Below, piece after piece: positions 2,520-23,126 of a stretch of DNA of 64,000 bases (within the stretch, counting starts at the first letter, position 1; every line of letters starts with the position of its first letter). The position numbers and the translations under genes were made by a program. A model generated the notes under the pieces. It made no database searches, had not been told where the DNA came from, and saw nothing but the letters and a program-made list of their open reading frames with translations. The stretch comes from an uncultured Gemmatimonadales bacterium (GTDB lineage: Bacteria > Gemmatimonadota > Gemmatimonadetes > Gemmatimonadales > GWC2-71-9), in the NCBI GenBank assembly GCA_963730185.1, contig CAVSQW010000012.1, positions 320,001 to 384,000 on the forward strand, written 5' to 3'.

Positions 2520-2540
2520 CGGCTCGCCGCCGGAGGGTGC

Positions 2541-2774: not shown

Positions 2775-2809
2775 CGCACACCTCGGTTGACGGCGCCGCC
2801 ACCCGCCGG

Positions 2810-3385: not shown

Positions 3386-3414
3386 GGCGTCGACGTCGCC
3401 CTTGGTGGCGGCGG

Positions 3415-4731
3415 TCAGACAGAGATCGGCCGCCTGCTGCCACTCGCTCCGCCCGAACGCCCGGGCGCAGCTGGGTGGGGGGGCGGGGGCGGCGGCGCGG
3501 GCGCGGGCTTCGGGGCCGGCTGGTCGGCCACCACTTGGCGGAGCGTGGGGCGCCAGCTGAACGTCTGCCCCGCCCGGACCGTGACGGTGGAGGTCATCGA
3601 CTCGAAGCCCCGTACCGAGAGCGACAGTCGATGGGTCCCCGCCTCAACCTCGGTCGAGCGCCCCCGGACCGGCGACCCGTCGATCCGGAAATCCGCGCCG
3701 GCCGGGAGGGCCAACCCCAGCGCCACGGTGCCGCGGGTCGAGGAGGTGGCCGGCGGCGGAGGCTCCGGAGCAGGCGGCTCCGTCAGGGTGGAGTCGGTCA
3801 GTCCGCCGAGCGGGTCGGGCGGCGGGGTCACTACGACCGGCATGGTGCTGTCGACGGCGGGGGGCGCCGGGGCTGGAATCGGCTCGTCGCCGCCCCGGAA
3901 GACCAGCGCCAGGATCAGCACCAGGAGCACCCCGCCCCCGATCCCGAACATCGCCTTCCGCGACAGCTGGAATCGAGGCAGCGACCGGCCGCCGGCGGGA
4001 CGCGCCGCACGCGGGGCCGCGGGCTTGGCCGGTGCGGGAGGCGGCGGCGAAGCCGGGCCGGAGGCGACCGGGGGCGGCATCGGCGGCGGCGCGGCCCCGA
4101 GCACCTGGGTCTTCCCCAGCTCGGCCGCCAGCGGGCGCATCACCTGCGTCTCACCGATCGAATAGGCGGCTTGCGAGGCGTCGGTGGTCTCCTCGCGGCG
4201 AAGCCTCAGGGCCACCAGCTTGCCGTCCCGAGCCAGGTCCTTCGCGAAGAAGACCGTGCCACCGCCTTCCGCACGGTCCATCTGGCCTAGAATCTCATAG
4301 GAACCGGAGGTGGCCTCCTTGACGGCCTCGAGGAGGCCGGCCTTGTCCTCCGCCGAAGGCGCCTGGACCCCGCCTGACAGGTCGGCTCCGCACCGGTAAC
4401 AGAAACGCTCCCAGTCCGAGAGCTCGGCCTTGCACTCCGGACACCGGCTTTCGACCCCCGGCAGGGAGCCGTCGAGGGTTCGGACCACTTCGAGCGTGTA
4501 GTCGTCACCGGCGGCGCCCGAGGGGTTTCGCTGCAGCTTGAGCACGACGAGGTGGGTCGTCTCGTTCTCGCGAGCGAGGTAGACGACGTTGCCGCTCTTG
4601 CTCCGGCCCATCTCACCCAGGATGTCGTACACGCCGGCGGCGGCCTCGCGAACCTGAGCCAGCAAGCGGTCCAGCGGGTCGCCCCCGCCGGCCGCGACAT
4701 TGAACTGGGTGGGCCCGCCGTCTCCGATCAT
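3415..4731 (-). CDS. Membrane protein with two kinase-N-lobe-like segments, a zinc ribbon, a TM helix and a PEGA-like domain; N-terminal part of a frameshifted Sel1 protein
   Basis: GVYDILGEMGRS..VVYLARE..VVLKL and GSYEILGQMDRA..VFFAKD..VALRL; CPEC..CYRC; TM FGIGGGVLLVLILALVF; PAGADFRIDG..AGTHRLSLSVRGF. Confidence 0.75.
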   Translation of the reverse strand: MIGDGGPTQFNVAAGGGDPLDRLLAQVREAAAGVYDILGEMGRSKSGNVVYLARENETTHLVVLKLQRNPSGAAGDDYTLEVVRTLDGSLPGVESRCPECKAELSDWERFCYRCGADLSGGVQAPSAEDKAGLLEAVKEATSGSYEILGQMDRAEGGGTVFFAKDLARDGKLVALRLRREETTDASQAAYSIGETQVMRPLAAELGKTQVLGAAPPPMPPPVASGPASPPPPAPAKPAAPRAARPAGGRSLPRFQLSRKAMFGIGGGVLLVLILALVFRGGDEPIPAPAPPAVDSTMPVVVTPPPDPLGGLTDSTLTEPPAPEPPPPATSSTRGTVALGLALPAGADFRIDGSPVRGRSTEVEAGTHRLSLSVRGFESMTSTVTVRAGQTFSWRPTLRQVVADQPAPKPAPAPPPPPPHPAAPGRSGGASGSRRPISV

Positions 4732-5577: not shown

Positions 5578-5722
5578 GGGAATTGGCGCCTGCTCGTCGC
5601 CTTGCCTGGTGAGACCCCTATAGGCGCTTGACAACTGGAGCCTTACGAGGCCAATTGTGAACGGTACGTCACCGCGGCCATCCCAGCGGCCCCCCCGATC
5701 CACATCCGGCGAGCTTCATACC

Positions 5723-8320: not shown

Positions 8321-8336
8321 CCTGAAGAGGCTCTCG

Positions 8337-9629
8337 ATGATGTCCCGCTTCGCATTGACCCTCGTCCTCTCCGTCGCCGCGGTTTCGACCGCGGCCGCTC
8401 AGGGCCTTCGCGACAAGGTCACCGACCTCTTTCGCTTCGGCGGAGGGTGCACTGACCCGGTCTGCCTCTCGGTCGACGGCACCCACGGTGAGCACTTCAA
8501 TCCCGCGGCCCGAACCGGCGGCAACAACCTGATCGGCTTCCTGACCGAGGCCATCGGCGCCAGCATCGCGAACATCCCGCTCAGCGCGGCGTCGGGCGGC
8601 GCCATCTGGGGCCGGAGCCCCGACGGGCTCCCGATCCGGACCGCGACGTCGGCCGGGCCGATCTTCGCCGAGCGGGGACAAACCCTGGGGCGGGGCCGGA
8701 TGCTCTTCGCGATGAACTTCAACCGGCTCGACTACCGCTCTCTCCGGGGGATTCCGCTGGACGGGCTCGTGACCACCTTCCCGCACCAGGACACCAACGG
8801 GGACGGCCTGGACACACCCGCCTTCGAGAGCGACGTGATCGAGGTCAGGACCACACTCAACATCAACGTCTCGGCCGTGACGCCCGTGCTGACCTACGGC
8901 CTGACCGATCACATCGACCTGAGCGTGGCGGTCCCCCTAGTCCGGACCTCACTTTCGGGCGAGAGTGAAGCGCAGATCATTCCCTTCTCCAATCCGACGC
9001 CCCACTACTTCGGGACGGCGGCCAACCCGCTGCTCCGCTCGACCGCCGGGGCTTCGGGCTCGGCCTCGGGCATCGGGGACATCGCGGTGCGGCTCAAGGC
9101 CTCGCTGGTGGCGAACCAGAAGGGCGCCTTCGCCCTGCTCGGTGACGTCCGCTTGCCGACCGGCAAGGAGGAGGATTTCCTGGGCGTGGGTGCCACCTCG
9201 TACAGCGTACTCGGCATCGGCTCGCTCCGGGCCGGCAACTTCTCGCCCCACTTGAACGGCGGCTACCTGCATCGGGGCGGCGCCTCCCAGAACGACGCCA
9301 TCCTGGCCACCCTGGGCTTCGATCACCTGATGGGCCCGGGCGCGACCCTCGCGTTCGACCTGATCACCGCTTGGCAGATCGGCGACAACAAGATCGAGTT
9401 TCCGCCCCCGGTCGAGGTCACGGCCAGCGTCGGTCCGGCCGCGGCGGTTCGGGTGGTTCACCAGACCAACATCCCGAACCGCAAGGACAACGTGATGATG
9501 GGGTCGCTCGGCGGGAAGGTGAGCGTGGGGCCGGGCTTCAGCCTGGTGGGGAACGCCCTGGTGCCACTCAATCAGGGCGGGTTGCAGCCGGGCGTGGCCT
9601 GGACGCTGGGCTTCGAGTACAGCTTCTGA
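8337..9629 (+). CDS. Outer-membrane beta-barrel (MetA-pathway/transporter-like)
   Basis: Signal peptide ending AAAQ; SGIGDIAVRLK and RLPTGKEEDFLG motifs; C-terminal beta-signal LGFEYSF. Confidence 0.75.
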   Translation: MMSRFALTLVLSVAAVSTAAAQGLRDKVTDLFRFGGGCTDPVCLSVDGTHGEHFNPAARTGGNNLIGFLTEAIGASIANIPLSAASGGAIWGRSPDGLPIRTATSAGPIFAERGQTLGRGRMLFAMNFNRLDYRSLRGIPLDGLVTTFPHQDTNGDGLDTPAFESDVIEVRTTLNINVSAVTPVLTYGLTDHIDLSVAVPLVRTSLSGESEAQIIPFSNPTPHYFGTAANPLLRSTAGASGSASGIGDIAVRLKASLVANQKGAFALLGDVRLPTGKEEDFLGVGATSYSVLGIGSLRAGNFSPHLNGGYLHRGGASQNDAILATLGFDHLMGPGATLAFDLITAWQIGDNKIEFPPPVEVTASVGPAAAVRVVHQTNIPNRKDNVMMGSLGGKVSVGPGFSLVGNALVPLNQGGLQPGVAWTLGFEYSF

Positions 9630-9737: not shown

Positions 9738-10076
9738 TCAGACGAAGTCGCGCCGGTCGAGGTTCGGGAAGACGACAGTGCAGGTGCCAGGGTTGATGCC
9801 CTCGATTCGGACCCGACCGTTGACGTCGAGCGTGCCCTCGATCGGCGTCATCCCGGGAGGGGTGACGATGAATCGCTGGTAGGGCACCGGCTTCTGGTCG
9901 GGATCGAGCAGCTCGATCCCGACAAAGGTTTCGGCCTTGGTCGGGTCCACCATGATCACGGACCGGGGCGGCGGGCCATCCGCCGGCGGGGCGGGCGTCG
10001 AGTCCGGCGGTAGCGGCTCGAACCGACAGGGTGCGCAGCCCCCCATCGCGTCGACCTGACCTGGCTCGAGATTCAT
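9738..10076 (-). CDS. Stand-alone transthyretin-like/carboxypeptidase-regulatory-like domain homologous to the PAAR C-terminal extension (putative co-chaperone)
   Basis: FVGIELLDPDQKPVPYQRFIVTPPG...EGTLDVNGRVRIEGINPGTCTVVFPNLD aligns by eye with PAAR WIEIELVDQKGKPVPHERYRVVPPG...EGFLDDQGFARIGGIDPGTCQITFPNLD; ATGA overlap with the DUF4123 gene. Confidence 0.8.
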   Translation of the reverse strand: MNLEPGQVDAMGGCAPCRFEPLPPDSTPAPPADGPPPRSVIMVDPTKAETFVGIELLDPDQKPVPYQRFIVTPPGMTPIEGTLDVNGRVRIEGINPGTCTVVFPNLDRRDFV

Positions 10077-10622
10077 CGGCGAACCACCAGTGGGGCGGCG
10101 GTCGGCGTCCGGCCCGACGGAGCGGCCGGACCGGGGGCGAGGACCTGAAGGCCGTAGGTGTCCGGGTCAGTCACCGCGAACGCACGCACCGGGCCGAAGG
10201 TCTCCTCGATTTGAGACTTGGTGCCGACGGCCAGGAACTTGGGCAGGACCCGCGGATCGTAAAACCGGAAGTACCAGGACTCGCCGTTCGGCGCGTCGAC
10301 CACAGCAACCGTCTGAAGTGCTTCCGCAGCTCCTCGAGCGAGACGTCGGTGAGGGCGAACACCCCCAGGGCGCGGCCCAGAGATCCGCGGTGATCCAGTC
10401 CAAGGTCAAGGGATCGACCTTGCACAGGTACGGGGCGATCGCCCAGAGCTCCTCCTCGGCCCGACCCTGGTAGAGCGAGACCGCCCGGGTCGCGCCCAGC
10501 TGTCGCATCTTCAGAGGGACCGCGACGACGCCGGTGGCATCGATGACCGCGAAGAGGCGACCCCGGTCAGCCCACTCGCGGGCCTGCAGGACCGACGCCG
10601 ACCTCTGGTGCACTTCAGGCAT
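10073..10622 (-). pseudogene. DUF4123 T6SS effector chaperone/adaptor with two apparent -1 frameshifts (possibly sequencing errors)
   Basis: Three frame fragments join into LFAVIDA..SLYQG..IAPYL..W..PWG/VF..SLEELRKHFRRLL/VDAPNGESWYFRFYDPRVL, the DUF4123 pattern; shifts near 10362-10366 and 10301-10304. Confidence 0.8.
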
Positions 10623-10766
10623 GGCTGGAGAATAAGGGCCGGAAACGGGTTCGGCCAGGCGACCAGGAACGGTCCCGGGCGCCCTGGACAGCCCGCCGCG
10701 TCGCATGGAGATTGGAGGCGGAAGTGCGACTCCGCACCGCCCCTCGAGGAACCGAGCCCGAACCTC

Positions 10767-11687
10767 ATGTCGCAACCCGCGGCCCGCCTGACGGACATGC
10801 ACGTCTGCCCGATGCAGACGCCGGCGGTCGTGCCCATTCCTCACGTCGGCGGCCCGATCACTGGGCCGGGCCAGCCCCAAGTGCTGATTGGCGGCTTGCC
10901 GGCGGCTCGGGTGGGTGATTTCTGCGTCTGCGTTGGCCCGCCGGCCCCGATCGCCATGGGGTCGTTCACGGTACTGATCGGCGGCAAGCCCGCCGCACGG
11001 GTCGGTGACATGACCGGGCACGGCGGAACCATCATGCCGCCCGGCTGCCCGACCGTGCTCATCGGCGATGCGGGCGGCGGGGCCGGGGGCCCGGCCGGCT
11101 TCACGATGGCGGGCGCCAGAGCGAGCGGAGCCGCCTTCACCCGCACGACCTGTCCGGCCGAAGGGGCGATGGCGGCCGCGGCCGGCTCGCCCCTGCTGGC
11201 GACTGGCGATCCCGAAAAGAAGAGCTGGATCGAGATCGAGTTGGTGGACCAGAAGGGGAAGCCCGTGCCCCACGAGCGGTACCGGGTGGTGCCGCCGGGC
11301 GCGAAACCGAGGGAGGGATTCCTCGACGATCAGGGCTTCGCTCGAATCGGCGGGATCGACCCCGGAACCTGCCAGATCACGTTCCCGAACCTCGATGCGG
11401 CCAGCTGGAAGCCGGAGAAGGGCGACCCGGGGCACGCCGTGACGTCGGTCCCGGTCTCGACCTACCACCCGTCGGTCGGACCGGTGGCGGCGCGCCCGTC
11501 GCACGTCGGGCGTCCCTCGGTGGGCCCGGTCAAAGTTCAGGTGGTGGTTCTCCAGCGTCCCTCGGTGGGCGCAGTCACGGTTCAGGTGGCATCCCTCCGG
11601 CGACCGTCGGTCGGGTTCGTCACGGTCCGGGTGGCGAGTTTCCAACGGCCCTCGGTTGGACCGGTAAGCGTGCGCAACGTCGGCTGA
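10767..11687 (+). CDS. PAAR-domain spike-tip protein with a C-terminal TTR-like domain and a 15-aa repeat tail
   Basis: Three PAAR motifs (QPAARLTDMHVCP, LPAARVGDFC, KPAARVGDMTGHGG) with His/Cys metal ligands; start set at ATG 10767. Confidence 0.92.
   Translation: MSQPAARLTDMHVCPMQTPAVVPIPHVGGPITGPGQPQVLIGGLPAARVGDFCVCVGPPAPIAMGSFTVLIGGKPAARVGDMTGHGGTIMPPGCPTVLIGDAGGGAGGPAGFTMAGARASGAAFTRTTCPAEGAMAAAAGSPLLATGDPEKKSWIEIELVDQKGKPVPHERYRVVPPGAKPREGFLDDQGFARIGGIDPGTCQITFPNLDAASWKPEKGDPGHAVTSVPVSTYHPSVGPVAARPSHVGRPSVGPVKVQVVVLQRPSVGAVTVQVASLRRPSVGFVTVRVASFQRPSVGPVSVRNVG
11466..11684 (+). repeat. Five degenerate 45-bp/15-aa repeats (RPSVGxVxVxVxxxx) in the PAAR tail
   Basis: HPSVGPV, RPSVGPV, RPSVGAV, RPSVGFV and RPSVGPV occur at 15-residue spacing. 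Confidence 0.85.
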
Positions 11688-11705
11688 TCAGCCGGGAGCG
11701 AACAC

Positions 11706-12134
11706 ATGGCGGAGCGGATCAAGGCGAAAGTGGGCGACACGGTGGAGACCTCGTTCAACCTGGCCTACAAGAAGGCCGAGGTGGCGCGGCTGCCGGACCG
11801 CAGCCAGTACGAGGCCATCGACTTCGTGATGTTCTGCGAAGCGGGCGGCAGGGAGTTCCTCGGGTCGGGGCTCCAGGCCAGCGTGGGCAACCACATCGTA
11901 TGTACCGTGCGGGAAGTGACCCAGGACGACCAGCCGGTGACGGCGCAGTGGGACTTCACCGCCTCGCCGTCCGAGAGTCCGGACTTCTTCAAGACCGGTG
12001 ATCTCTGGCAGCTCTACCTGGCCTACGTCGAGAAAGGTGGCTCGCCTCCGGGTGACCTCCATTCGCCCCGGGTCCACCTGCTGGCCGAGGTCGAGCTGGT
12101 AGCCGCCGATCCCGCATCGGGCACCAAGGCGTAA
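11706..12134 (+). CDS. Hypothetical protein (142 aa, no signal peptide) in the PAAR operon
   Basis: GGGAG RBS; tight spacing to both neighbours. Confidence 0.7.
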   Translation: MAERIKAKVGDTVETSFNLAYKKAEVARLPDRSQYEAIDFVMFCEAGGREFLGSGLQASVGNHIVCTVREVTQDDQPVTAQWDFTASPSESPDFFKTGDLWQLYLAYVEKGGSPPGDLHSPRVHLLAEVELVAADPASGTKA

Positions 12135-12137
12135 CCC

Positions 12138-12785
12138 GTGTCGGACGACAAGGTAACCCCGACCGATCACGCCCTTCGTCCCGGGGACCACCTGAGCCGA
12201 GTGGCGGGAACCTATCGGTTCCGCTCGTACGGCCCGCTCTGGAACGACGCCGCCAACGCCGCGTTCCGCCAGCGCCGACCCAACCCTCACATCCTCGCCG
12301 CCGGCGAGTCGGTCCACGTCCCCGAACTCAACCTCCGCGAAGTGGACCGCGCCACCGAGGCCCGCCATCGCTTCCGGGTCGAGCTCCACCCGCTGGTCGT
12401 TCGGCTGGCTCGAAAGCACTGGGACGGGACGCTCGACGACCGGGCGCCGGCCGAGGTGCGCCTCGACGACAAGCCGGTCGCAGCGGACCCCGGCGGTCCC
12501 GGCGAGCTGGCGGTGCCGGTCGGGACCCTGGACGACCGGCTCACGATCCGGGTCGACGACGCCGAGCTGACCGCCCGGATCGGCTTCCTCCAGCCAATCG
12601 ACACCCTGGCCGGAGTCCGGGACCGGCTCACCAACCTCGGCTATCGCGCCGGCGACGCCGACCGCCCCGACGTCCCCGGCTTCCGCTCGGCGGTCGAGGA
12701 GTTCCAGTGCGACCATGGTCTCGTCGTCGACGGCAAGGTCGGCCCCGTGACCCGGGCGGCGCTGGTGAAGGCGCACGGCTGCTGA
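12138..12785 (+). CDS. LysM-like + PG_binding_1 peptidoglycan-binding protein (cassette 1)
   Basis: HALRPGDHLSRVA..PNPHILAAGESVHVP; RLTNLGY..SAVEEFQCDHGLVVDGKVGPVTRAAL. Confidence 0.85.
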   Translation: MSDDKVTPTDHALRPGDHLSRVAGTYRFRSYGPLWNDAANAAFRQRRPNPHILAAGESVHVPELNLREVDRATEARHRFRVELHPLVVRLARKHWDGTLDDRAPAEVRLDDKPVAADPGGPGELAVPVGTLDDRLTIRVDDAELTARIGFLQPIDTLAGVRDRLTNLGYRAGDADRPDVPGFRSAVEEFQCDHGLVVDGKVGPVTRAALVKAHGC

Positions 12786-14012
12786 ATGCCAGAGGATTTC
12801 CTCGCCGTCGCGCCGACCGACGTCGCCACCGAGCACAACACGATCAAGGCCCCGCTGGCGCCGGTGGCGGTCTGGGAGCTGACCGACGCGCACTTCGCGT
12901 TCGACTCGTCGGTGCTGCTGCCGTCGATGACCCTCGAGCTGGCGGAGTTGATCGCGATCGTCAAGACTCTCCCCGGCACCTTGCTGTCGGTGTTCGGTCA
13001 TACGGACACCACCGGCAACGACGACTACAACAAAGTGCTCGCCGGGCGTCGCGCAATGGCACTGTATGCGCTGCTGACGAGAGAGGTCGACCTCTGGGAC
13101 CGCCTCTTCACCCATCCGCACGGCGGTGACGACTGGCGCCGAGAGCACGAGTTCTCCCTGGCGCTGATGCGCGACGCCATCGGTCCGGAGGCGAGCGGAT
13201 TGACCCGGCGCCCCCTCTTCCAGCGCTTCATGACGCTCCTCGCCCGGGATCCCGCCGGGAAGTCCTTCGGACTCCCGAAGCGGGCCTTTCTGGGCAAGGG
13301 CGCCGACGCCAAGGGCAGGGGCGACTTTCAGGGATGCGGCGAGTTCAACCCGCTCCGGATCTTCTCCCAGGCGGAGCTGGCCGCCTTTCGGGACCCCGCC
13401 GCGAAGGAGACCCGCGACGCAGAGGGCGCGATCAATCGGCGCGTCTCGGTGTTCTTCTTTCCGGCCGACACCAAGATCTCGGTCCCGAAATGGCCCTGCC
13501 CGCGGGCCCTGGAGGGGACCGCGGCGTGTCGGAAGCGGTTCTGGTCCGACCACGCCGCGCGCCGCCGGCCCGGCGAGCGCCGACGGGAGGAGCCGGGCGA
13601 CGCCGACACTTTCGGCTGCCGGTTCTACGACCGAATCGCCATCGACGCCGCGCGACACGGCAAGACTTCGTCGTTCGGGCGTCTGGTGGTTCGAGCGGAG
13701 TCGGTCTTGCCTTCGGTCAGCAAGCGCGAGCTGGTGGTGCTCGATCCGGCCGGCAAGCTTCTGGGCTCGGCGGTGTTGAATCCCGAGACCAAGCCGGGGG
13801 CGCCACCACCCCCACCCCAACCCGCCCAGATCGTGCTCAAGCCGCCCTTCGGACCGGGCGAGCATCGGATCGAGCGGCGGACGGCTGGTGAGGCGGAGGC
13901 GGCCCCGGTTCGGATGGATTTCCAGGCGTTGATCGGCGCCGTCCTGCGGGAGCGGGACAAGTTCTCGCCTCCAGAGGTCGTTGCCCCGTCGACCGCGAAG
14001 CCGGCCTCGTAA
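12786..14012 (+). CDS. OmpA_C-like domain protein with a large internal insertion and a Cys-containing extension (cassette 1)
   Basis: HFAFDSS..VFGHTDTTGNDDYNKVLAGRRA ... GCGEFNP..NRRVSVF; WPCP..C..TFGCRFY. Confidence 0.8.
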   Translation: MPEDFLAVAPTDVATEHNTIKAPLAPVAVWELTDAHFAFDSSVLLPSMTLELAELIAIVKTLPGTLLSVFGHTDTTGNDDYNKVLAGRRAMALYALLTREVDLWDRLFTHPHGGDDWRREHEFSLALMRDAIGPEASGLTRRPLFQRFMTLLARDPAGKSFGLPKRAFLGKGADAKGRGDFQGCGEFNPLRIFSQAELAAFRDPAAKETRDAEGAINRRVSVFFFPADTKISVPKWPCPRALEGTAACRKRFWSDHAARRRPGERRREEPGDADTFGCRFYDRIAIDAARHGKTSSFGRLVVRAESVLPSVSKRELVVLDPAGKLLGSAVLNPETKPGAPPPPPQPAQIVLKPPFGPGEHRIERRTAGEAEAAPVRMDFQALIGAVLRERDKFSPPEVVAPSTAKPAS

Positions 14013-14016
14013 CGCC

Positions 14017-15534
14017 GTGGCCAAGAAGCCGCTCGACGTTCTCCTCTTCGAGGCGCTGATCAACCAGCGACGTGACGATGGGACCTGGCTGGTGGTCCCG
14101 ACCAGCGACGTCGCCTTCGAGGTGTCCCTCGACGACGGCGTCAGCTTCCAGCCAGTCGAACGGAGCGGCATCCCTTTCGTTCCGGATTTCTTCCGGCTGC
14201 CCTCCGGCCCACGGCCGATTCAGTATCTGGTCCGGGCGACGCCGACATCGTCCCAGCTCTGGCCGGTGGCGTGCCGGTTCACCCTCGGCCCGGACGGCGG
14301 CACCTTCGCTCGGGACGGATCGGAGAAGGGGAACCCGGTGATCGAGCCGGGGGCCTGGCCGATGCCGGTGCGGACGTCGCTGGAGGACAGCTCGATTCTC
14401 GCCGCGTTCGGCTTCGGTAACGCCACCCTCATCCACCACGTCGCCCACCTCTCCCGAGTTCGGGACGCCAGCGATCAGGCCCTGGCGCTGATCAACGAAG
14501 GCAAGCCGATCGACCACCCCGACGACTGGCTCGCCAGCTGGAACCAGGGTACCCCCGCCCGATCACATCTGGGGCGGAACCCGTTGGTGGCCGACCGCAA
14601 GCTGTTGCTCGAGGAGGGGCCGGTCCGGTTCTTCGCTCAGGAGGTCGCCATTCTGGAGATCGCGGACGCTCCGGTGCCGTTGGTGGCGGTGTCCTGGTCA
14701 GCCGGAGTGCTGCGGGGCGGGACGCCGACTCCGTTCCTGGTCTACATCCACCCGGATCACGGTCAGAACGTCGACTACTACGGAGGGCAGCCATATCCCG
14801 GCCCGCGCTATCTGTACTCGGTCGGGTTCCGCAATCTGTTTCACGAGAGCGACCCCCTGGTGGCGCCCAACGGATCCAAGGGCCTCACCACCCAAGTCGC
14901 GGCCGCGGCCAAGGCCGCGGTCGTCGTGGTGCCCATCGCCCGGTTGGGGAATCATCTCGGGCCCCTCGCGGACGCCACCGTGATGGAGCAGGTGCTGCGG
15001 GAGATCCAGACCTTCTTCTATCACCGGGCCGACGACAGCCCACCGCCGCAGCTGGGCCGGGTGGCGCTGTCCGCCTACAGCAACGGCGCCGGGATCCACT
15101 TGAATGCGTTCCTCCAGAAGAACCAGCGGCACCCGTTCCTGGCCAACCTGGTTCGCGAGCTGTACCTGATGGATCCGAGAATGAACGACGAAGCGTTGGT
15201 GAACGCGGTGATCGCCTGGTCACGGACCGGCCAGGCCGCTGACAAGCGGATCCGGGTGTACCTGGGGGCCCGGCACGCCGAGTTCCTGAGAGTGATCGGG
15301 GCCGGCGGTTTCACGCTGTCGCCTGGGCTCCAGAGCACTCCCGACGGTCGGCGAAGCGTCGCCCTGATGGAGGGGAGCTCGTGGATCGCCGCGGCACGCC
15401 GAGAGGGTGCGTCCAAGGAGGTGGCCCAGGGGTTCGCCTTCTGGGGCACCGTCCATGAGGCGATCCCCGGGACGATGTTCACCCATGCACTGCTAAACAG
15501 CGGGTTCGAGGAGGCGTTCGATCTCGGTTTCTAG
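14017..15534 (+). CDS. Hypothetical protein with a possible alpha/beta-hydrolase C-terminal domain; candidate effector (cassette 1 cargo)
   Basis: GTG 4 nt after the OmpA stop; nucleophile-elbow-like VALSAYSNGA, then LYLMDP and a late HEAIP. Confidence 0.65.
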   Translation: MAKKPLDVLLFEALINQRRDDGTWLVVPTSDVAFEVSLDDGVSFQPVERSGIPFVPDFFRLPSGPRPIQYLVRATPTSSQLWPVACRFTLGPDGGTFARDGSEKGNPVIEPGAWPMPVRTSLEDSSILAAFGFGNATLIHHVAHLSRVRDASDQALALINEGKPIDHPDDWLASWNQGTPARSHLGRNPLVADRKLLLEEGPVRFFAQEVAILEIADAPVPLVAVSWSAGVLRGGTPTPFLVYIHPDHGQNVDYYGGQPYPGPRYLYSVGFRNLFHESDPLVAPNGSKGLTTQVAAAAKAAVVVVPIARLGNHLGPLADATVMEQVLREIQTFFYHRADDSPPPQLGRVALSAYSNGAGIHLNAFLQKNQRHPFLANLVRELYLMDPRMNDEALVNAVIAWSRTGQAADKRIRVYLGARHAEFLRVIGAGGFTLSPGLQSTPDGRRSVALMEGSSWIAAARREGASKEVAQGFAFWGTVHEAIPGTMFTHALLNSGFEEAFDLGF

Positions 15535-16130
15535 TCGTCCGCGGCCCAACGGATCGACGGCCACGGAGGGAAGGGCGTGGGCGCAGTGGAATGGAAGGAT
15601 CGCTGGCCGGTAAACCGGTTCAGGGGCGGGACGTCCCGCCAGACGCGGAGGTCCCAGACCGGTCCGGTTGGCGAGGATTCCAACCGGGATCGCAGCCGGA
15701 CCGGCCCCTGGGAGTCAAGCGGAAATAGCCTACTCACCCGGGCGCTGCTCACCAGGTCGTCGGTGGCGAGCAGGAGCTGGAACACGAGCTCGAGGTCGTT
15801 GGCGTCGGCGTAGGGAGCCGAATACTCGACGGTGAAGTTGGCCATCTGATCGGGATGGCGGATGGTGAGCAGGCGGAGGGATCCGGCTCGGACCAGGAGC
15901 TGGTCGCGGACCGCGGCCTTGGCCGCCCCGATGTCTTGGAAGAACTTGGTGGCCGCCGCCGTGGTGGCGAACGCGATCTCCACCTCAGTCTCGGGCCCGT
16001 CCCCGTCGACCGTGACGCTCGCGGCGGCGTCGCCGAAGGCTCCGACGACCCGAGCGAAACCGGCGGCATCGTCCGCGGTCCAGGCCCCGGCAGGCCGGAG
16101 CTCGACGCAATGGGGGGTATTGTCTGGCAT
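15531..16130 (-). CDS. Hypothetical protein (199 aa), convergent on cargo 1
   Basis: Normal composition; its stop overlaps the cargo-1 stop (CTAG). Confidence 0.6.
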   Translation of the reverse strand: MPDNTPHCVELRPAGAWTADDAAGFARVVGAFGDAAASVTVDGDGPETEVEIAFATTAAATKFFQDIGAAKAAVRDQLLVRAGSLRLLTIRHPDQMANFTVEYSAPYADANDLELVFQLLLATDDLVSSARVSRLFPLDSQGPVRLRSRLESSPTGPVWDLRVWRDVPPLNRFTGQRSFHSTAPTPFPPWPSIRWAADD

Positions 16131-16396
16131 GAGATCGGAGGCAAATGGTACGGATCGGTCGATCGGGGGGCAAGCCCTTGGCCCGGCCCGGGTGCAAGGC
16201 GCTGGACAGGGTGCAGGCTCCGCCCGAGATTTCAGCCGTTCCCGGACGACGACCGGGGATCCCGTCCTGGCCCCTGGGACGGACTACGGGATGATTTCGA
16301 ATCGCCCCGGCGCACCCGACGACCGCTCGATCCGGATCGGTCCGCGCGACGCCGAGATCCGGACCCAGCCAACCCATCCTCACCACTGAGGGGCCG

Positions 16397-17107
16397 ATGG
16401 CCGACGAGCACACCATCGCCCCGGGCGACCACCTGTTCCGCCTGGCCCGCGAACGGGGATTCCGAACCGTTCGGGCGCTCACCGACGAACCGGCGAACCG
16501 ATTTCTCCTGGCCAAGCGGGTCAACCCGGCCACCCTGGCCGAAGGCGATGTCGTCACGATCCCCGCCCTCGAGCCGAAGCAGACCAGCGGCGCCACCAAC
16601 CAGTTCACCACCTTCACGGTGGCCGAGAGCGGGCTCCTCCTCAACCTCCGCCTCCAGGACACCGACCAGCAACCGCTCGCCACGCGGGCCTACCGCCTGG
16701 TCGTCGCGGAGCACGATCCGGCGGGCGGAACCAGCCCGGCCGACCCGATCGACGACGTGACCTCGGCCCAGGGAGAGATCGCCAAGGAGATTCCCGACTT
16801 CGCCTTCGAGGGCGAGCTCACCGTCCATGAGAACGAGGACCCGGCCTCCGCCGTGATCGGAACAATCAAGGTTCTGATCGGGGTTCTGGAGGCCGCCAAC
16901 ACGATCCGGGGTCAGCAGGCCCGGCTCAACAACATGGGCTACTTCGCGGGCTTCTCCGAGAAGGACCTCGATCAGCTCCACTGGGCGATCGAGGAGTTCC
17001 AGGCCGACCACGGCCTGAAGGCCACCGGGCGGATCGACGATCCCGCGACCTTCAACCGGATCGCCCACGAGCACGGCGACCTGCTCAAGAGCGAGAAGGT
17101 GCCCTGA
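16397..17107 (+). CDS. LysM-like + TTR-like + PG_binding_1 protein (cassette 2)
   Basis: HTIAPGDHLFRLA..NPATLAEGDVVTIP; QARLNNMGY..AIEEFQADHGLKATG; paralog of 12138-12785; GAGGGG RBS. Confidence 0.85.
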   Translation: MADEHTIAPGDHLFRLARERGFRTVRALTDEPANRFLLAKRVNPATLAEGDVVTIPALEPKQTSGATNQFTTFTVAESGLLLNLRLQDTDQQPLATRAYRLVVAEHDPAGGTSPADPIDDVTSAQGEIAKEIPDFAFEGELTVHENEDPASAVIGTIKVLIGVLEAANTIRGQQARLNNMGYFAGFSEKDLDQLHWAIEEFQADHGLKATGRIDDPATFNRIAHEHGDLLKSEKVP

Positions 17108-18867
17108 TGGCCAGCACGATCAACATTCCCGACATGGTGGAGGAAAACGCCAACGGGATCTTCGCCACCCAGCCCATCCGGGCGAGCTTGCCGGTCCTGG
17201 TGGCGCCGACCGACTCCAGCCGGGCCGCGGCCACCAACCTGATTCGCCGCCCGCTGGTGGTCGTCGCCTGCGCCAATCTCAAGGAGTACAACTTCGACTT
17301 CGACTCGTCGGTGGTGCTCCCCCAGGCGCGCGACGGCTTCACCTCCCTGGCCGGCCTGATCGGCCGTCATCCGGGGTCGCCCATGTCAATGTTCGGGCAC
17401 ACCGACCCCGAAGGACCGGTCGAGTACAACCAGTTTCTGAGCGAGCGGCGCGCCCGGGCGATCTTCGCCGTGCTGGTACGCGACCCGGCGATCTGGGATG
17501 ATCTCTTCCGGCATCAGCAGGGCGCCAGCGGCGACGATTGGGCCAAGCACGGCGCGATCGAGATCATGCTCACCGGCCTCGGCCTCCAGCCGGGCGAGCC
17601 AACCCCCGGCCTCGCGCCCGAAACGCGCGACGCCCTTCGGCAGCTGCTCGGCCTTCCACCCGGCGCGTCGGTCAACAACGCGGCCGTCCGGCTCGCGCTG
17701 TTCGAGCGGTACATGGATTTTCTCCGGAGCGGCTCCGACGGCAAGGCGACCTTCCCGGCGGTCACGACCGACGACTTTCTGGGGAAGGGCAAGCAGCGCG
17801 GGACCCTGCAGGGCTGCAGCAAGTTCAATCCCCAGCTCTTGCTCAAGAAGCAGGACCAGGACCGCTTCGACAAAGACAAGTCGCCGGAGACCAAGCAAGC
17901 GCGCGACCTCAAGAACGAGAACAACCGGCGGGTGGTGATCTACTTCTTCGCTCCGGGCTCCGCGATCGATCCCGAGCGCTGGCCTTGCCCCACGGCGCAG
18001 ATGGGACCGGGACGGTGTGAGGCCCGCCAGTGGTCGGACGGCACCGACCGACGGAAGAAGCTCTTCGTGGTCCATCCCCGGCGATTCGGACGCGAGGTTC
18101 GGCCGGAGGCCCGCGAGCTCGACCCGCGGAGCCCCGTGCTCGAGCAGAAGCTGGGCAACGAGGAGACGACGTTCGGATGCCGGTTCTATCACGGCATCGC
18201 GGCCCATTCCCCCTGCGAGCGTGACCTCAAGATGTGGGGGCTCCGGATCCTGATCGACGCCCCGACCCCGATTCAGTCCGGTGGGACCAACAAGTCGAAC
18301 AAGAAGATCCCGCTGGCCAACCGCCGCTACGTGGCCCTGATCGGGTCGTCGTCCGACGCCCCGTCGGTCCGCGGTCGGACCACCGCTGAGGGCATGATCG
18401 GCCTCCCGTTCTTCGACCCGAACGTCCCGATCACCCTCAAGATCGACGCGTTCGCCGCCCTGGCTCCCCCCCCGGCCCCGGCCAAACCCGGCGATCCGGC
18501 CCCGGCGGCGAAGCCGACCTCCGACTCGGAGCGGTTCGAGGACGAGGATCAGTTCCTGGTGCTCCGTCTCGACGGCAGCAAGCTCCGCCCGATCCGGGTC
18601 CGAGACGAGAGCTCGCTGGGGTTCGATCCGGACTTCGACGACGATCCCGCTCCGGTGACTGACGCGGATCGCCGGCTCGGTGCCCTCCAGCGTCTCTTCA
18701 ATCTCGGCTACGGCAGCGACGACACCGGGGGCGACGCCTTCGGGAACTGGACCAACGACCAGCGTCGGGCCTTTCTGAAGCAGTTCCAGCGCGACCACGA
18801 CCTCGACGAGTCCGGCACGCTCGACCAGGCGACCACCGACGCCCTGATCAAGGCGCACGGGTCGTGA
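17107..18867 (+). CDS. Split OmpA_C-like + TTR-like + PG_binding_1 protein (cassette 2)
   Basis: NFDFDSS..MFGHTDPEGPVEYNQFLSERRA..GCSKFNP..NRRVVIY; WPCP..C..TFGCRFY; C-terminal RLFNLGY..FQRDHDLDESGTLD..TTDALIKAHGS. Confidence 0.82.
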   Translation: MASTINIPDMVEENANGIFATQPIRASLPVLVAPTDSSRAAATNLIRRPLVVVACANLKEYNFDFDSSVVLPQARDGFTSLAGLIGRHPGSPMSMFGHTDPEGPVEYNQFLSERRARAIFAVLVRDPAIWDDLFRHQQGASGDDWAKHGAIEIMLTGLGLQPGEPTPGLAPETRDALRQLLGLPPGASVNNAAVRLALFERYMDFLRSGSDGKATFPAVTTDDFLGKGKQRGTLQGCSKFNPQLLLKKQDQDRFDKDKSPETKQARDLKNENNRRVVIYFFAPGSAIDPERWPCPTAQMGPGRCEARQWSDGTDRRKKLFVVHPRRFGREVRPEARELDPRSPVLEQKLGNEETTFGCRFYHGIAAHSPCERDLKMWGLRILIDAPTPIQSGGTNKSNKKIPLANRRYVALIGSSSDAPSVRGRTTAEGMIGLPFFDPNVPITLKIDAFAALAPPPAPAKPGDPAPAAKPTSDSERFEDEDQFLVLRLDGSKLRPIRVRDESSLGFDPDFDDDPAPVTDADRRLGALQRLFNLGYGSDDTGGDAFGNWTNDQRRAFLKQFQRDHDLDESGTLDQATTDALIKAHGS

Positions 18868-21485
18868 CCGTCCCCCATTTCCCCAACGACGCCAAGCCCG
18901 TCGCCGACGACGTGGGGGCGCGTCGTACCGAGACCGCCCGGCGCTCGTTCCACCGGATCAACGCCCCACGGTACGATGTCGCCGTCGACGGCAACCAGCG
19001 TCGGATCGGCAACAAGCGACGACCGTCGGGACTCGCCAAGGAATCCGGCGCTCGCGGTCCGGAGGCCTTCGCCGCGAGCGGCTTCCTGGAGCACTTCGCC
19101 CGGCTAACCACCAAGCTGCTCAAGTCGGCACTGCTCGCGATCCCGCTGGTCGGCCAGGCCGCGTTCCTGGTCGACGCGTTCTTCAAGACCCTGACCGGCA
19201 AGAGCCCGCTGGAAGAGCTCTTCGCCGCGCTCGCCAAGCTGGCCAGCTCCAGCGTCGAGGGCGCCCTCTTCGCCCGGCTGATGCGCGCCATTCCCGCCTG
19301 GGTCCCGGTGGCCCGACGGGGCTACCGGGCCGAGTTCCGCTACGAGGAAGACGGGACGCCGCGGACGGTCGACAAGGAGGAAGAGCGAGAGGTCGAGGGG
19401 TTCCTCACGGCGAGCTACGCCCTCCACAACGACGTCGTGTTCACCCAGTGGAGCCACTTCCGGCATTGGGCCTTTCATGTCCTGCCGACTCCCGGTTTCG
19501 ACTACCTGATCGGCCGGGGCAACATTCCCGATCCGGCGGAGAACGGCTTCATCGACCGGATCGACACCAACATCAACGCACCCCTCTTCGAGCGGGCGCT
19601 CCGGATCTACGGCCAGCAGCGACCCAGCACCGACGATCCGGACCGCGGGGCCCTCGAGTGCCTGTTCGACGTGGGCGCGATCACCAAGCCACCGGGCGAC
19701 GGCGGCTTTCACGGGGCCCACTTCTCCGGCTTGTGGCCGTATTGGCCGATGGCGGGCGACTACTTCTGGGCCGCCGGGCGGTGGAGCTACGACTGCATGC
19801 GCGCCACCGCGGCCGACAAGACCGAGATCTACCCCAGCCAGATCAGCCCGATCAAGGCGTTCGCGGCCGCCCGGTACGAGGGAGTCAAGTTTCCGGAGAA
19901 CGAGAGCACCGTCGAAGCGGTCCGCTTCTTTTTCTTCGCCAGCTCCGAGGGAGGCTTTCGCGACTTTCACGTCGTGCCGGGTCGGAAGGGCCCGCCGGGA
20001 CAGCCCCACATCACCCTGCGCGATCGCGACTATGAGTTCGTGGTCGACCTCCCACCGCACGCCGAAGGGCGGAGCGCCTACCCGGTGGGATCCACCATCG
20101 ACTTCGCCTTCAACACGCTGGTGATCCGGCCGCGCCTGCTGGTCCAGGTGCGGGCCGCACCGTTCGCGGTGGGCGACAAGGTGCCCCAATTCGCCGAGGG
20201 ACTCAAAGCGGTCGCGATCGAGCCCAAGATCGAGCTGCTCCGCCCCTCGAAGCCGACCGAGCGGCCCCAGCAGGTGAAGATCACCATCCCGCTGAGTCAG
20301 CTGCCGGCCGCCGACCCGCAAGCTCGGGAGATGGTCGGGCTGGACATCGCGCTCGGCTGGCACGACCCGACCGGCGAGGAGCTGAAGGATCTGGTCCTGA
20401 TCGACGCCGACATCCGGTTCCCGAGATTCTACAGCCAGTCCGGGCCGGTCCGGCTCATGACCGCGATCAACGGGCGGTGGAACATCCTGACCGAGGACGT
20501 GGAGGAAGAGCCGGACGAGCCCCCGGCCGACTTCCCGCCTCCGGGCTCCCGATCGATCCACCGGGTTCGCCTCTTCCTGCCCAAGGAGGCTCCCGTCTCG
20601 ATCGTCGCCGGGGGAATTTGGTTCCACGGCTTCGGCGAGTTCATGGAGGGCGACACGCTCGCGGGTCGGCGGCTCTTCGTGGGAGGACTGCTCCTCAACG
20701 TCGACGACGACACCAAGCGGCGGCTGCAGGGGGTCATCGACGACGTTCGCAAGACCGTCAACGACCTCCGGAAGGCGGGGCAGACCGTCAAGGATCCCAA
20801 GGCGAGGATCAAGGCGGAGATCCAGAAGCAAATCGACGAGGAGCGGAAGAAGGGCACCGACCCCCGGGCCCTGGCCGAGCTGCAGAAGCAGATGGACGCC
20901 CTGGTGGACGGGCTCCCCGACACGCCGGACGGGATCCAGGCGGCCCTGGCCGCCCTGGACCGCCGGCTGACCGGCATCCTCGACGTGCTCGACGGGATCG
21001 AGGAGTTCCTGAAGGTCACCGACGACCTCATCGGCGAGCGATACTTCCCGGTCTGGCACGAGGACATCGACAACGAGCAGAAGACCGGCGTCGAAGAGAG
21101 CAAGCGGGTGTCGGCCATCGCCCGAACGATGTTCATCCACCCCACCCCGGTGGTCAATCGCCACGACGAGCCCATGGGCTGGGTCGAATTCATCGACCGG
21201 GGGCGGGGCACGCTCGGGCGGGAGCCGAGTGGGGCGTTGATCGTGCCGAATCCGCTGGGGCGGGGGACCGCCGGGGAGCTGCTCAAGCTGGCCGACGCCA
21301 ACGGCGGCAAGCCCATCCGGATGCGGCTGGTGGCGCAACCCTTTACCGGGGTAGGCAGCGGCAACAACCTGGCTCGACGGATCAACCCGCCCCAGGAGCG
21401 GTCCGACTACGAGTTCCAGGTGAACCTCGAGGTCCACCGGTTCCCGTTCCCAGCGCCCAAGAGCGGCGATCCCGAGGTCGGCTGA
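18864..21485 (+). CDS. Large hypothetical protein (873 aa) with a hydrophobic segment and a coiled-coil insert; candidate effector (cassette 2 cargo)
   Basis: GTGA overlap with the upstream gene; LLKSALLAIPLVGQAAFLVDAFF; charged helical block at about 20700-21030. Confidence 0.75.
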   Translation: MTVPHFPNDAKPVADDVGARRTETARRSFHRINAPRYDVAVDGNQRRIGNKRRPSGLAKESGARGPEAFAASGFLEHFARLTTKLLKSALLAIPLVGQAAFLVDAFFKTLTGKSPLEELFAALAKLASSSVEGALFARLMRAIPAWVPVARRGYRAEFRYEEDGTPRTVDKEEEREVEGFLTASYALHNDVVFTQWSHFRHWAFHVLPTPGFDYLIGRGNIPDPAENGFIDRIDTNINAPLFERALRIYGQQRPSTDDPDRGALECLFDVGAITKPPGDGGFHGAHFSGLWPYWPMAGDYFWAAGRWSYDCMRATAADKTEIYPSQISPIKAFAAARYEGVKFPENESTVEAVRFFFFASSEGGFRDFHVVPGRKGPPGQPHITLRDRDYEFVVDLPPHAEGRSAYPVGSTIDFAFNTLVIRPRLLVQVRAAPFAVGDKVPQFAEGLKAVAIEPKIELLRPSKPTERPQQVKITIPLSQLPAADPQAREMVGLDIALGWHDPTGEELKDLVLIDADIRFPRFYSQSGPVRLMTAINGRWNILTEDVEEEPDEPPADFPPPGSRSIHRVRLFLPKEAPVSIVAGGIWFHGFGEFMEGDTLAGRRLFVGGLLLNVDDDTKRRLQGVIDDVRKTVNDLRKAGQTVKDPKARIKAEIQKQIDEERKKGTDPRALAELQKQMDALVDGLPDTPDGIQAALAALDRRLTGILDVLDGIEEFLKVTDDLIGERYFPVWHEDIDNEQKTGVEESKRVSAIARTMFIHPTPVVNRHDEPMGWVEFIDRGRGTLGREPSGALIVPNPLGRGTAGELLKLADANGGKPIRMRLVAQPFTGVGSGNNLARRINPPQERSDYEFQVNLEVHRFPFPAPKSGDPEVG

Positions 21486-21575
21486 GCCCGTCGCCAGGAC
21501 GCCGGCGGCCGTTTGGTCTTCCTCGACCCCGCTCCACCCGGCATATTCAGCGGCATCCCGGCCCACGGCCGCCCC

Positions 21576-23126
21576 ATGACCGAACCCCAGTCGCCCGCGC
21601 CCCTCGGCCCGGCCGACCGCACCACCTTCTTCGAGGAACAGGCTCGCCGTCGACGCCGGACCCACCATTTCGCGGTGGCGTCCGCGCTCGCCGTGGCCCT
21701 CGCCGGCATTCCGGTGAGTCTGGTGGTTTCCCCCCTGCTCTACCTGGTCACCCTCACGGTGGCCCACCTGATCCAGCTCGCGACCCCGCTCCCGGCGGCC
21801 TTCTGGCACCTGGTGGATCAGGCCGGCCGCTTCCTGCCGACCGTGGCCCACCAGATCGACCGGGCCATTCAGGCCGGCAACTGGCGGTTGCTGGACCTCC
21901 GCGCACTCGGCCTGCTGGGAATGGCCCTCGTCCTTCCCGGCATCGCCCTCTCGGTCGTGGCCTGGCTCTGGGTCCGGGCGCTGCTCCATCGGGTCGGCGT
22001 GGGCGGGGTCCTGACCCGGATCGGCGCTCGACCCCCGCAGGAGGACCGCCTGGAGGAACGCCAGCTGGTCAACCTGGTGGAGGAGATGGGCATCGCCGGT
22101 GGGCTCCGCCGGCCCCGGGTGATGCTCCTCGACGTGGCGACCCCCAACGCCGCCGCCATCGGCCGGAATCGCGACGACGCCACGATCGTCGTAACCCGGG
22201 GCCTCCTGGAGGAGCTGAGCCGGGACCAGACCCAAGCCGTGATCGGGCATCTGGTCGGGTCGATCGGAAACGGCGATCTGGAGATCGCCTGGCTGCTGCT
22301 GGCCGTGTTCCAGACGTACGCCCTCCTGACCGTCCTGCTCCAGGCACCCTCCTCGCGGACCGCGCGGCGGAATGCGTGGCGGGCGGTCAAAGGACTGGTG
22401 CTCCGCGACCAGGCCGAGCTGGAGCAGGTGGCCGACCTCCTGGCCAGCGACGACGATGGGAAGACCGTGGGCGAGGCCGACGAGGTCCGGACCGTGTTGG
22501 GGCTCTGGCGGTTCCCGTTCATCATCGTGGGCCTGACCGTCCAGGTGCTGGTCACGGTCGGGACCATGCTGATCGTGGGCCCGGCCCTGGGCGCGCTCTG
22601 GCGGACCCGGAGGTACCTGGCCGATGCCTGCGCGGTGCAGCTGACCCGGAACCCCGACGGGATGGCCGGCGCGCTCCAGAAGCTGGCCAATGAAGGCGGC
22701 TTCCCGGCCGGCCGGTCGAGCCGCCTCCTGTTCGTGGTCTGGGGCGGGTCGTCCGGGGGGGGCAGCGGGCCGACCATCCCGGGCGGGCTCCATCCTCGGA
22801 TCGACCGCCGGATCCGCCGGCTCGAGGCCACGGGAGCCAAGGCGGCGCCGGTCCGGGCACCGCACTGGAGCCTCCACTGGTGGACCCCACTGGTCGCGGT
22901 CCTGATGGCGGTGGTCTATCTGGTGATGGCGGCGGCGCTGGTGATGATGGTCGCGGCGGCGATCTTCTTGACGGGCATGAGTCTGGCGTTCACCGCCGCG
23001 GCCATCGCTTTCGTCCACTGGTTCTTCGGAATCGCGCCCCACCTGCCCGCCATCGCGCGACGGGCCGCCGTGATCGGACAGGAGCTGGTCCGCGCCCTCC
23101 AGCAGCTCTGGGCCCACCGCCGCTAG
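21576..23126 (+). CDS. M48/HtpX-like membrane protein with a degenerate zinc-binding motif
   Basis: FFEEQARRRRRT, NLVEEMGIAGG..P, PNAAAIG, VTRGLLEELSRD, RYLADACAVQLTRNPDG and HPRIDRRI motifs; HExxH is replaced by HLVGS. Confidence 0.8.
   Translation: MTEPQSPAPLGPADRTTFFEEQARRRRRTHHFAVASALAVALAGIPVSLVVSPLLYLVTLTVAHLIQLATPLPAAFWHLVDQAGRFLPTVAHQIDRAIQAGNWRLLDLRALGLLGMALVLPGIALSVVAWLWVRALLHRVGVGGVLTRIGARPPQEDRLEERQLVNLVEEMGIAGGLRRPRVMLLDVATPNAAAIGRNRDDATIVVTRGLLEELSRDQTQAVIGHLVGSIGNGDLEIAWLLLAVFQTYALLTVLLQAPSSRTARRNAWRAVKGLVLRDQAELEQVADLLASDDDGKTVGEADEVRTVLGLWRFPFIIVGLTVQVLVTVGTMLIVGPALGALWRTRRYLADACAVQLTRNPDGMAGALQKLANEGGFPAGRSSRLLFVVWGGSSGGGSGPTIPGGLHPRIDRRIRRLEATGAKAAPVRAPHWSLHWWTPLVAVLMAVVYLVMAAALVMMVAAAIFLTGMSLAFTAAAIAFVHWFFGIAPHLPAIARRAAVIGQELVRALQQLWAHRR

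Follow-up and report, generated by a model that had tools for sequence, protein, structure and literature searches.

A two-protein LysM and split-OmpA module beside a divergent type VI secretion core in Gemmatimonadota: a putative secreted adaptor for exchangeable enzymes

Known systems and the locus under study

To our knowledge, the cargo effectors of type VI secretion systems (T6SS) share no universal signal. Each new delivery domain (MIX, FIX, RIX and WHIX) has opened a new catalogue of toxins. Here we describe a putative delivery module encoded in a 64,000-nucleotide stretch of the genome of an uncultured Gemmatimonadales bacterium (hereafter the window: G000:C12:320001-384000, in a 5.27 Mb genome that is 82% complete; G, C and L numbers denote genomes, contigs and loci). 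The module is present as two cassettes, each encoding a protein with LysM-like, TTR-like and peptidoglycan-binding domains (PGBD) (protein 1), a protein with an OmpA_C domain split by an insert (protein 2), and a third, large open reading frame (ORF). Each cassette probably encodes a secreted two-protein adaptor that would load the enzyme encoded by the third gene, or fused to protein 2, onto the VgrG-PAAR spike; we assign this reading a probability of about 0.62.

The closest described systems are compared here on the basis of portions of the respective papers. The RIX-TTR secreted adaptor with its cargo Rte1 (Kanarek et al., 2023; PMC10435454) resembles the present module in that an N-terminal domain is found fused to diverse toxins but also on its own, in an adaptor that has a TTR loading platform and is encoded immediately before its cargo, and in that the module is interchangeable with PAAR fusions. 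The MIX binary effector module VP1388/VP1389/VP1390 (Dar et al., 2022; PMC8728615) likewise consists of two co-encoded proteins at the edge of a T6SS cluster, one of them with an OmpA_C-like domain. In vgrG loci surveyed by Wang et al. (2023; PMC10673891), LysM and PG_binding_1 domains are found, stand-alone or fused, between vgrG and toxins, and a LysM protein bridges VgrG and the effector; PG_binding_1 is said there to be limited to gamma-proteobacteria. The TagL/TssL-OmpA anchors (PMC13584744; PDB 5m38, 4b62) are T6SS-linked proteins with the same OmpA_C fold and wall-binding Asp/Arg pair, and the Tox-OmpA domain of PVC systems (Zhang et al., 2012; PMC3482391) is another case of an OmpA domain in substrates of a contractile system. 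As for the phylum, the available part of one survey reports T6SS of subtype i4b in Gemmatimonadetes and describes type iii as confined to Bacteroidetes (PMC9113992).

A divergent T6SS core on the same contig

The locus, which the earlier note on this DNA had taken for an orphan apart from core genes, belongs to a T6SS cluster, of which it forms the payload end: a divergent core is located 15-27 kb upstream on the same contig (C12:304095-316131). A search of the genome with PF05954 gave a match at C12:312516-312911. The minus strand upstream of the window encodes tssB, tssC, a gene of 128 amino acids (aa), genes in the positions of Hcp and TssE, and vgrG, and continues with tssF, tssG (with a PASTA domain), tssK, clpV, an FHA-TPR gene and a kinase; Hcp and TssE are named by position and size and have no family match. 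Because the window begins 3.9 kb past tssB (315661-316131), which itself ends 14.6 kb before the PAAR gene, no Hcp, VgrG, sheath or baseplate gene is found within it, as had been observed before. The core TssC matches PF17541 (E 1e-21), the signature of the Bacteroidota-type T6SS-iii, and does not match PF05943. Searches of the genome with PF05943, PF05638 and PF06841 (the latter without a responding positive control) found nothing, which is explained by a core that has diverged or is of a different type.

In related loci, the cassettes abut tssB or share its island (L007, L008, L010, L094-L097 and L100-L103; L007 and L008 are tssB-abutting). The record of L008 is labelled Bacillota, yet the locus is a typical Gemmatimonadota one (TssB/C 80-84% identical) and was probably misbinned.

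The core represents a Gemmatimonadota T6SS subtype (L013, equal to G000:C12:302103-318830, and L095, L097, L098, L101, L103, L109-L112) with TssC proteins that are 76-85% identical across 10 genomes, a Bacteroidota-type TssC, a PASTA-fused TssG, ClpV and, between tssC and hcp, a conserved gene of 128 aa. Constant companions of this core are membrane proteins, namely a VWA protein, a ubiquitin-like/transmembrane (TM)/FHA-like protein, a signal peptide-containing TPR-TM-FHA protein, kinases, and PEGA/Sel1 proteins, which could provide the envelope link of this system. The locus also exposes a T6SS subtype without recognisable TssL, TssM or TssA. Of the TssN/O/P/Q/R membrane complex of T6SS-iii, TssN was not found in 5 genomes, with no positive control responding.

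The split-OmpA protein

The OmpA-like proteins of the two cassettes are 35% identical (337 columns, E 6e-50). In the AlphaFold2 (AF2) model of the cassette 2 protein (mean predicted local distance difference test score, pLDDT, 86.8; alignment of 111 sequences), a complete OmpA_C fold is seen at approximately positions 12-282, with DotK (6x65) and the TagL domain (5m38) as the best matches (Z 11.1); a second structure search agrees on this fold at weak E-values. The interruption of the OmpA_C domain by a large insert, already recognised in the earlier note, is real, and the insert turned out to be a PGBD, as indicated by Pfam matches in many homologues (down to E 5e-18) and by its alignment with the PGBD of protein 1 (hhalign 98%). 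Among the 251 family members, an Asp/Arg pair is kept in 239, as in the TagL/TssL anchors that share the fold; we take these to be the peptidoglycan-binding residues of OmpA_C domains. The other motifs of the core are similarly conserved: QGC in 246 members, NRRV in 245, WPCP in 248 and TFxCxxY in 241. The module is not a product of chance because the family is conserved, synteny is maintained and the fold is confident.

By a crude hydropathy screen, no signal-like or TM-like stretch was detected in the aligned members of the module's protein families (0/68, 0/55 and 0/60). Accordingly, the inner-membrane anchor of TagL and TssL is not seen in the split-OmpA members (the latter two sets), and, on hydropathy only, the proteins resemble secreted adaptors in lacking a Sec/Tat signal or TM segment. 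C-terminal to the core, the beta domain at 376-490 aligns with the TTR region of Tle1-bound VgrG (6sjl; 57 residues, root-mean-square deviation 2.0, Z 6.4), a middling match that is weak taken alone. One TTR-like beta domain is, however, common to the extension of PAAR, a 112-aa protein, the middle of protein 1 and the post-core region of protein 2 (hhalign 93-97%), and homologues give CarboxypepD_reg or prealbumin-like Pfam matches. A TTR-like domain of the kind that serves as a loading platform in secreted adaptors is therefore present.

A recent duplication of the cassette was considered and rejected: in a quick tree, the two copies belong to separate, well-supported clades. Other forms related to protein 2 were noticed, namely a diverged 1350-aa split-OmpA-like protein encoded opposite the PAAR fusion in G146 (L096:14453-18505) and the proteins P0061, P0192 and P0221, which include proteins with two OmpA domains and one that is extended at its N-terminus by 260 aa without a match to any known family.

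Protein 1 and PAAR fusions

The two LysM/PGBD proteins of the window are 31% identical to each other. Within the family, LysM was matched in 30 of 68 members and PG_binding_1 in 59 of 68; the LysM domains of both window proteins score below the Pfam threshold. Where the DNA before the split-OmpA gene is long enough to tell, protein 1 is encoded directly upstream of it in 74 of 87 cases. In G125 and G146 (L094, L096), PAAR and the complete LysM-TTR-PGBD protein form a single fusion, and in three other loci (L006, L066, L100) PAAR is joined to TTR-PGBD.

In L040, L041, L068 and L100, LysM-TTR-PGBD genes precede cargo-like genes and no OmpA partner is present, so that protein 1 may work alone there; an amidase is encoded upstream of the LysM-TTR-PGBD gene in L040, and zincin-like genes follow it in L041 and L068.

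The third slot and fused enzymes

The third ORFs of cassettes 1 and 2 are unrelated to each other, and each is single-copy in the genome. Across the family, 82 same-strand downstream genes of at least 150 aa can be sorted by homology into 38 groups (71 genes remain when dereplicated at 85%; four duplicate loci were dropped). Pfam matches among representatives (55 proteins scanned) include zincins, PLD, tyrosinase and beta-lactamase-like proteins, and most representatives have no match. Moreover, 34 of the 251 split-OmpA proteins carry C-terminal extensions of at least 300 aa that form 16 groups; these include PAD, Het-C, peptidase M91, CHAT, EEP (41 long or odd members scanned) and metallophosphoesterase domains. 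The stand-alone third genes of L035, L070 and L062/L076 match fused C-termini elsewhere (at best 38% over 365 aa, E 1e-63). The constant N-terminal core is thus both fused to diverse enzymes and stand-alone in front of them, as in polymorphic delivery domains. At matched core identity (40-50% bin), the post-core region tracks the third-gene family (0.38 vs 0.15; the pairs are not independent).

These fused forms and the shared TTR-like domain carry the argument, and both had been missed in the earlier note. What that note had proposed, a conserved two-protein carrier with polymorphic cargo that is tied to a contractile system, survives at the family level on each point by which it was to be judged: homologous cassettes are associated with PAAR, VgrG or DUF4123, the third gene varies, and the genome has a contractile system. 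Variability of the cargo does not extend to cassette 2, where the third gene belongs to one conserved family.

The third protein of cassette 1 is a predicted alpha/beta-hydrolase, with a Ser355 elbow, Asp386 and a C-terminal His read by eye from the alignment; an Atlas search pointed to esterase families (0.83-0.85, a lead only), and the comparison with PDB sequences gave no match. This gene has two close relatives, plus L009. By motifs read from alignments, the slot in close relatives of cassette 1 is occupied by one of four kinds of enzyme: an alpha/beta-hydrolase (window, L009, L007), a metallophosphoesterase (L005, L006, L021), a caspase-like His/Cys protease (L015, L017, L024, L104) or a zincin (L066, L100). 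The suggestion that the cassette 1 third protein starts with the same TTR domain was unsupported (hhalign 0.1%, 4-sequence profile). The OmpA copies of cassette 2 form one clade in which every complete next gene belongs to one family (15 genes). The 873-aa protein of this family folds confidently in its AF2 model (pLDDT 81). It is rich in beta structure, has a hydrophobic, helical stretch around 85-107 and forms a hairpin of helices at 613-720. Fold and profile searches gave no clear match, only generic helical-hairpin matches (Z <8) and weak beta-rich ones, and Atlas scores were <0.85. One homologue (P0140) has an additional EEP domain. A complex prediction for protein 2 (6-496) and the third protein (1-503) of cassette 2 scored 0.00, which speaks neither for nor against an interaction.

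The split-OmpA protein could alternatively be a periplasmic toxin itself, in the manner of VP1390 or of Tox-OmpA as proposed; the LysM protein would then be delivered with it as a co-effector, and the third gene would encode a separate effector or partner. We consider this improbable. VP1390, with its OmpA_C-like domain, does kill from the periplasm according to the cited portion of PMC8728615. The near-invariance of the core residues and motifs is far above the needs of an adaptor, which would agree with a toxin; at the same time, the core appears too conserved for one engaged in an arms race. Toxins in arms races are usually less conserved. In addition, the core is N-terminal to diverse fused enzymes, and signal peptide-like next genes, as would be expected of immunity genes, follow 3 of 17 fused forms and none of 54 short forms (crude cut-off).

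In L041, L063 and L070, at least three cassettes follow one another in tandem, and no two of them have the same third gene.

Distribution and linkage to T6SS

With the split-OmpA profile A1, of which the PGBD region is a part, 863 clusters at 50% identity were matched (E up to 1e-30), with source names such as Bryobacterales, Pyrinomonadaceae, Methylomirabilis and Phycisphaerales. The family, annotated only as 'OmpA family protein', is a real, widespread and mis-annotated module, and its hosts are abundant, barely studied soil phyla: Gemmatimonadota and, judging by source names, Acidobacteriota, Planctomycetota and Methylomirabilota.

Among 401 Gemmatimonadota genomes, which are related and not independent, 9 have split OmpA, 8 have the LysM protein and 10 have this TssC, and all 8 genomes with the LysM protein have all three. 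The ninth split-OmpA genome, G187 (a weaker match), has a canonical VgrG; G367 is fragmented. In G105 (C14; L109-L110), the same T6SS core is accompanied by two long VgrGs with a lipoprotein-like gene after each of them, the classic layout of an evolved VgrG plus immunity gene, and there is no LysM/OmpA pair.

The metagenome set consists of the best 79 loci of 552 confirmed matches and is biased toward cassette 1. A T6SS-linked marker was found in 14 of the 29 loci of at least 8 kb, or in 10 of 29 if the TTR-only protein is left out, in a blastp screen with the proteins of this genome only. Canonical T6SS-i genes are adjacent to the pair in three loci (L072, L080, L089), including DotU and IcmF in L080. 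As for other delivery domains, linkage to T6SS spike genes, including PAAR fusions, is therefore found, in the metagenomes for about half of the long loci only.

Proposed mechanism and its alternatives

The adaptor reading is grounded in the T6SS adjacency, the domain make-up, the lack of export signals, the PAAR and enzyme fusions and the polymorphic third slot; that proteins 1 and 2 are secreted and bind cargo is inferred. Under this reading, protein 1 would tether to PAAR or VgrG, and the conserved OmpA_C/PGBD/Cys core of protein 2 would be a trafficking domain that docks on protein 1. The variable TTR domain of protein 2 would grip the cargo, as TTR domains do in VgrG-Tle1 and RIX-TTR-Rte1, and DUF4123 might help loading. 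Cassette 1 would then be an exchangeable slot, here with a predicted hydrolase, and cassette 2 a fixed, old partnership with a conserved protein of the 800-aa class. A more speculative guess is that, in the periplasm of a rival, the three peptidoglycan-binding modules would hold the complex at the wall.

Several observations weigh against the adaptor reading. The third genes of the window were not found fused to the OmpA core among the family proteins compared. No immunity-like gene follows either of them and few are seen in other loci by a crude screen; in the RIX-TTR and VP1388-90 operons, as far as described in the cited portions, such genes are present. A T6SS-linked marker is absent from 15 of the 29 long metagenomic loci. 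TssL, TssM and TssA (DotU, IcmF_N, ImpA_N) were not found in 5 core-bearing genomes, where the positive controls responded. Finally, the constant partner of cassette 2 fits a structural subunit as well as cargo.

The last of these points, together with the missing DotU, IcmF_N and ImpA_N, would agree with the pair being a structural part of the T6SS, that is, a cell-wall anchor or a baseplate/spike accessory that replaces the missing TssJLM/TagL. The closest folds are indeed the peptidoglycan-binding domain of TagL and DotK, cassette 2 is present in 8 of the 10 genomes with this sheath, and other contractile systems have LysM proteins in their baseplates (9g8s match, E 0.013). Nevertheless, a structural role is very unlikely in our estimate: TagL has three TM helices (PMC13584744, part seen) whereas the pair has no TM segment or signal peptide, the pair also occurs beside DotU and IcmF genes in L080, G105 dispenses with it while having the same core and two VgrGs, and the number of copies varies from 1 to 3 per genome with changing third genes.

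The scarcity of immunity genes and the partial T6SS linkage would be compatible with a module that exports non-toxic enzymes (scavenging or wall-attached hydrolases), targets eukaryotes or uses a non-T6SS route; tyrosinase, PAD and Het-C cargoes, too, need not act on bacteria. We regard this as rather unlikely given the tight genome-level co-occurrence in Gemmatimonadota and the PAAR fusions, and RIX genes, too, are normally found in orphan effector islands (PMC10435454, in the portion cited).

A broader extension of the adaptor reading is tentative and on the doubtful side, namely that the cassettes belong to an undescribed, very large T6SS delivery family of soil phyla in which PAAR, LysM and split-OmpA proteins are chained via the shared TTR domain and carry swappable enzymes, three wall-binding modules anchor the payload on the wall of the victim, and, in Gemmatimonadota, the T6SS subtype that the family serves has a sheath like that of Bacteroidota and lacks a recognisable membrane complex. 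If the adaptor reading is right, dozens of unknown effector families could be listed with the WPCP/QGC core as a marker, and a fold known as a membrane anchor would have a new use, as a soluble OmpA_C domain employed in delivery or in docking on the target.

Gene map and neighbouring genes

The features of the locus are listed in Table 1. The PAAR gene and the minus-strand DUF4123 gene named in the earlier note are present, and so are the two LysM/PGBD proteins, the two OmpA-like proteins with WPCP and TFGCRFY motifs and the two large, unrelated third ORFs. The tight junctions are also seen: the protein 1 and protein 2 genes abut in cassette 1 and overlap by 1 nt in cassette 2, and the latter protein 2 gene overlaps the third ORF by 4 nt. 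The likeliest start of the cassette 1 third ORF is moved to 14017, 4 nt after the OmpA gene, rather than 13981.

Table 1. Features of the locus (window coordinates)
Coordinates	Strand	Feature	Basis or remark
9738..10076	-	112-aa protein, short N-terminus and TTR/CarboxypepD-like beta domain	51% identical to PAAR residues 148-214
10073..10622	-	DUF4123 (Tap/Tec-type) effector chaperone	PF13503 in two pieces
10767..11687	+	PAAR spike tip, linker, TTR-like domain (148-214) and C-terminal short beta-repeat tail	PF05488 (E 2.5e-24), hhalign, repeat seen in translation
11706..12134	+	142-aa protein, no known family	Pfam/NCBIfam: no match
12138..12785	+	Cassette 1 protein 1, LysM-like, TTR-like, PGBD; no signal peptide	
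12786..14012	+	Cassette 1 protein 2, OmpA_C interrupted by a degenerate PGBD, tail with QGC/WPCP/TFxCRFY, TTR-like region (divergent), terminal PGBD absent	
14017..15534	+	Cassette 1 third gene, 505 aa, predicted alpha/beta-hydrolase, variable slot	Motifs in alignment
15531..16130	-	199-aa ORF, tail to tail with cassette 1 third gene	
16397..17107	+	Cassette 2 protein 1, LysM-like, TTR-like, PGBD	PAAR-fused in G125, G146
17107..18867	+	Cassette 2 protein 2, OmpA_C (~12-282, PGBD inserted), Cys tail, TTR-like (376-490), PGBD (519-585)	AF2 model, structure searches
18864..21485	+	Cassette 2 third gene, 873 aa, conserved family	48 matches including close relatives
21513..23126	+	M48/HtpX-like membrane metalloprotease	PF01435; recurs at L004, L010, L011, L096, L105

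The 112-aa ORF recurs next to DUF4123 or VgrG in many loci. The DUF4123 gene is split by two frameshifts into three frames in this assembly and is intact in homologues; because near-identical soil-strain contigs lack the shifts (both sites in one run and one site in a second, each covered by a single low-depth contig), these are probably assembly errors. The C-terminus of PAAR (11450-11687) consists of short RPSVG-type repeats, and a related-strain contig is 45 nt shorter there, which suggests that the tail varies in copy number. Homologues of the 142-aa protein are found in L005, L009, L012, L016, L019, L021 and L105; the family is confined to cassette neighbourhoods in Gemmatimonadota-like loci, and a related group is located 3' of cassette 2. 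The 199-aa ORF has no family match and no homologue in the fetched loci. A tblastn search of plasmids gave no match.

The minus-strand genes at 402-4731, encoding a Zn-ribbon Ser/Thr kinase, Sel1 and PEGA proteins, are part of the same island as the core; PEGA and Sel1 form a single ORF in relatives and two here, possibly through a further assembly frameshift. Between the core and the PAAR locus (5657-9629), a Big_1-repeat protein with a C-terminal CxxCH and a MetA-pathway-like beta-barrel protein are encoded, which are apparently unrelated to the cassettes.

Comparison with known systems

In the literature searched, which covered few subscription papers, no description of the OmpA/PGBD-insert family or of the cassette was found; PMC7714669, PMC13373197 and the Lipocone preprint, the latter two in the portions seen, have no bearing on it. 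The vgrG loci of Wang et al. have, in the main-text portion of PMC10673891, no OmpA partner, TTR link or three-gene cassette; protein 1 may already be listed in the supplements of that paper. The TagL/TssL-OmpA anchors are membrane-anchored, single-copy structural parts, whereas the split-OmpA protein is soluble, has an inserted PGBD and carries or precedes variable enzymes. In the Tox-OmpA proteins, as described in the cited part of PMC3482391, the OmpA domain is always C-terminal and is the proposed toxin; here it is N-terminal and constant. In VP1388-90, compared by description only, the OmpA protein is the toxin and the MIX protein the tether, with a signal-peptide immunity gene between them. 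The RIX-TTR adaptor, as far as its source was covered, differs in that the N-terminal domain here is an OmpA_C/PGBD/Cys core of 280-330 aa that needs a second, LysM-TTR-PGBD gene, in that no immunity gene is evident here, and in that the hosts belong to soil phyla and not to Vibrionaceae. No RIX or MIX domain was matched in the Pfam/NCBIfam scans, the coverage of these models by the libraries being unconfirmed. Without being assigned to the RIX, MIX or VP1390 groups, the module is best read as working like a secreted adaptor and polymorphic delivery domain.

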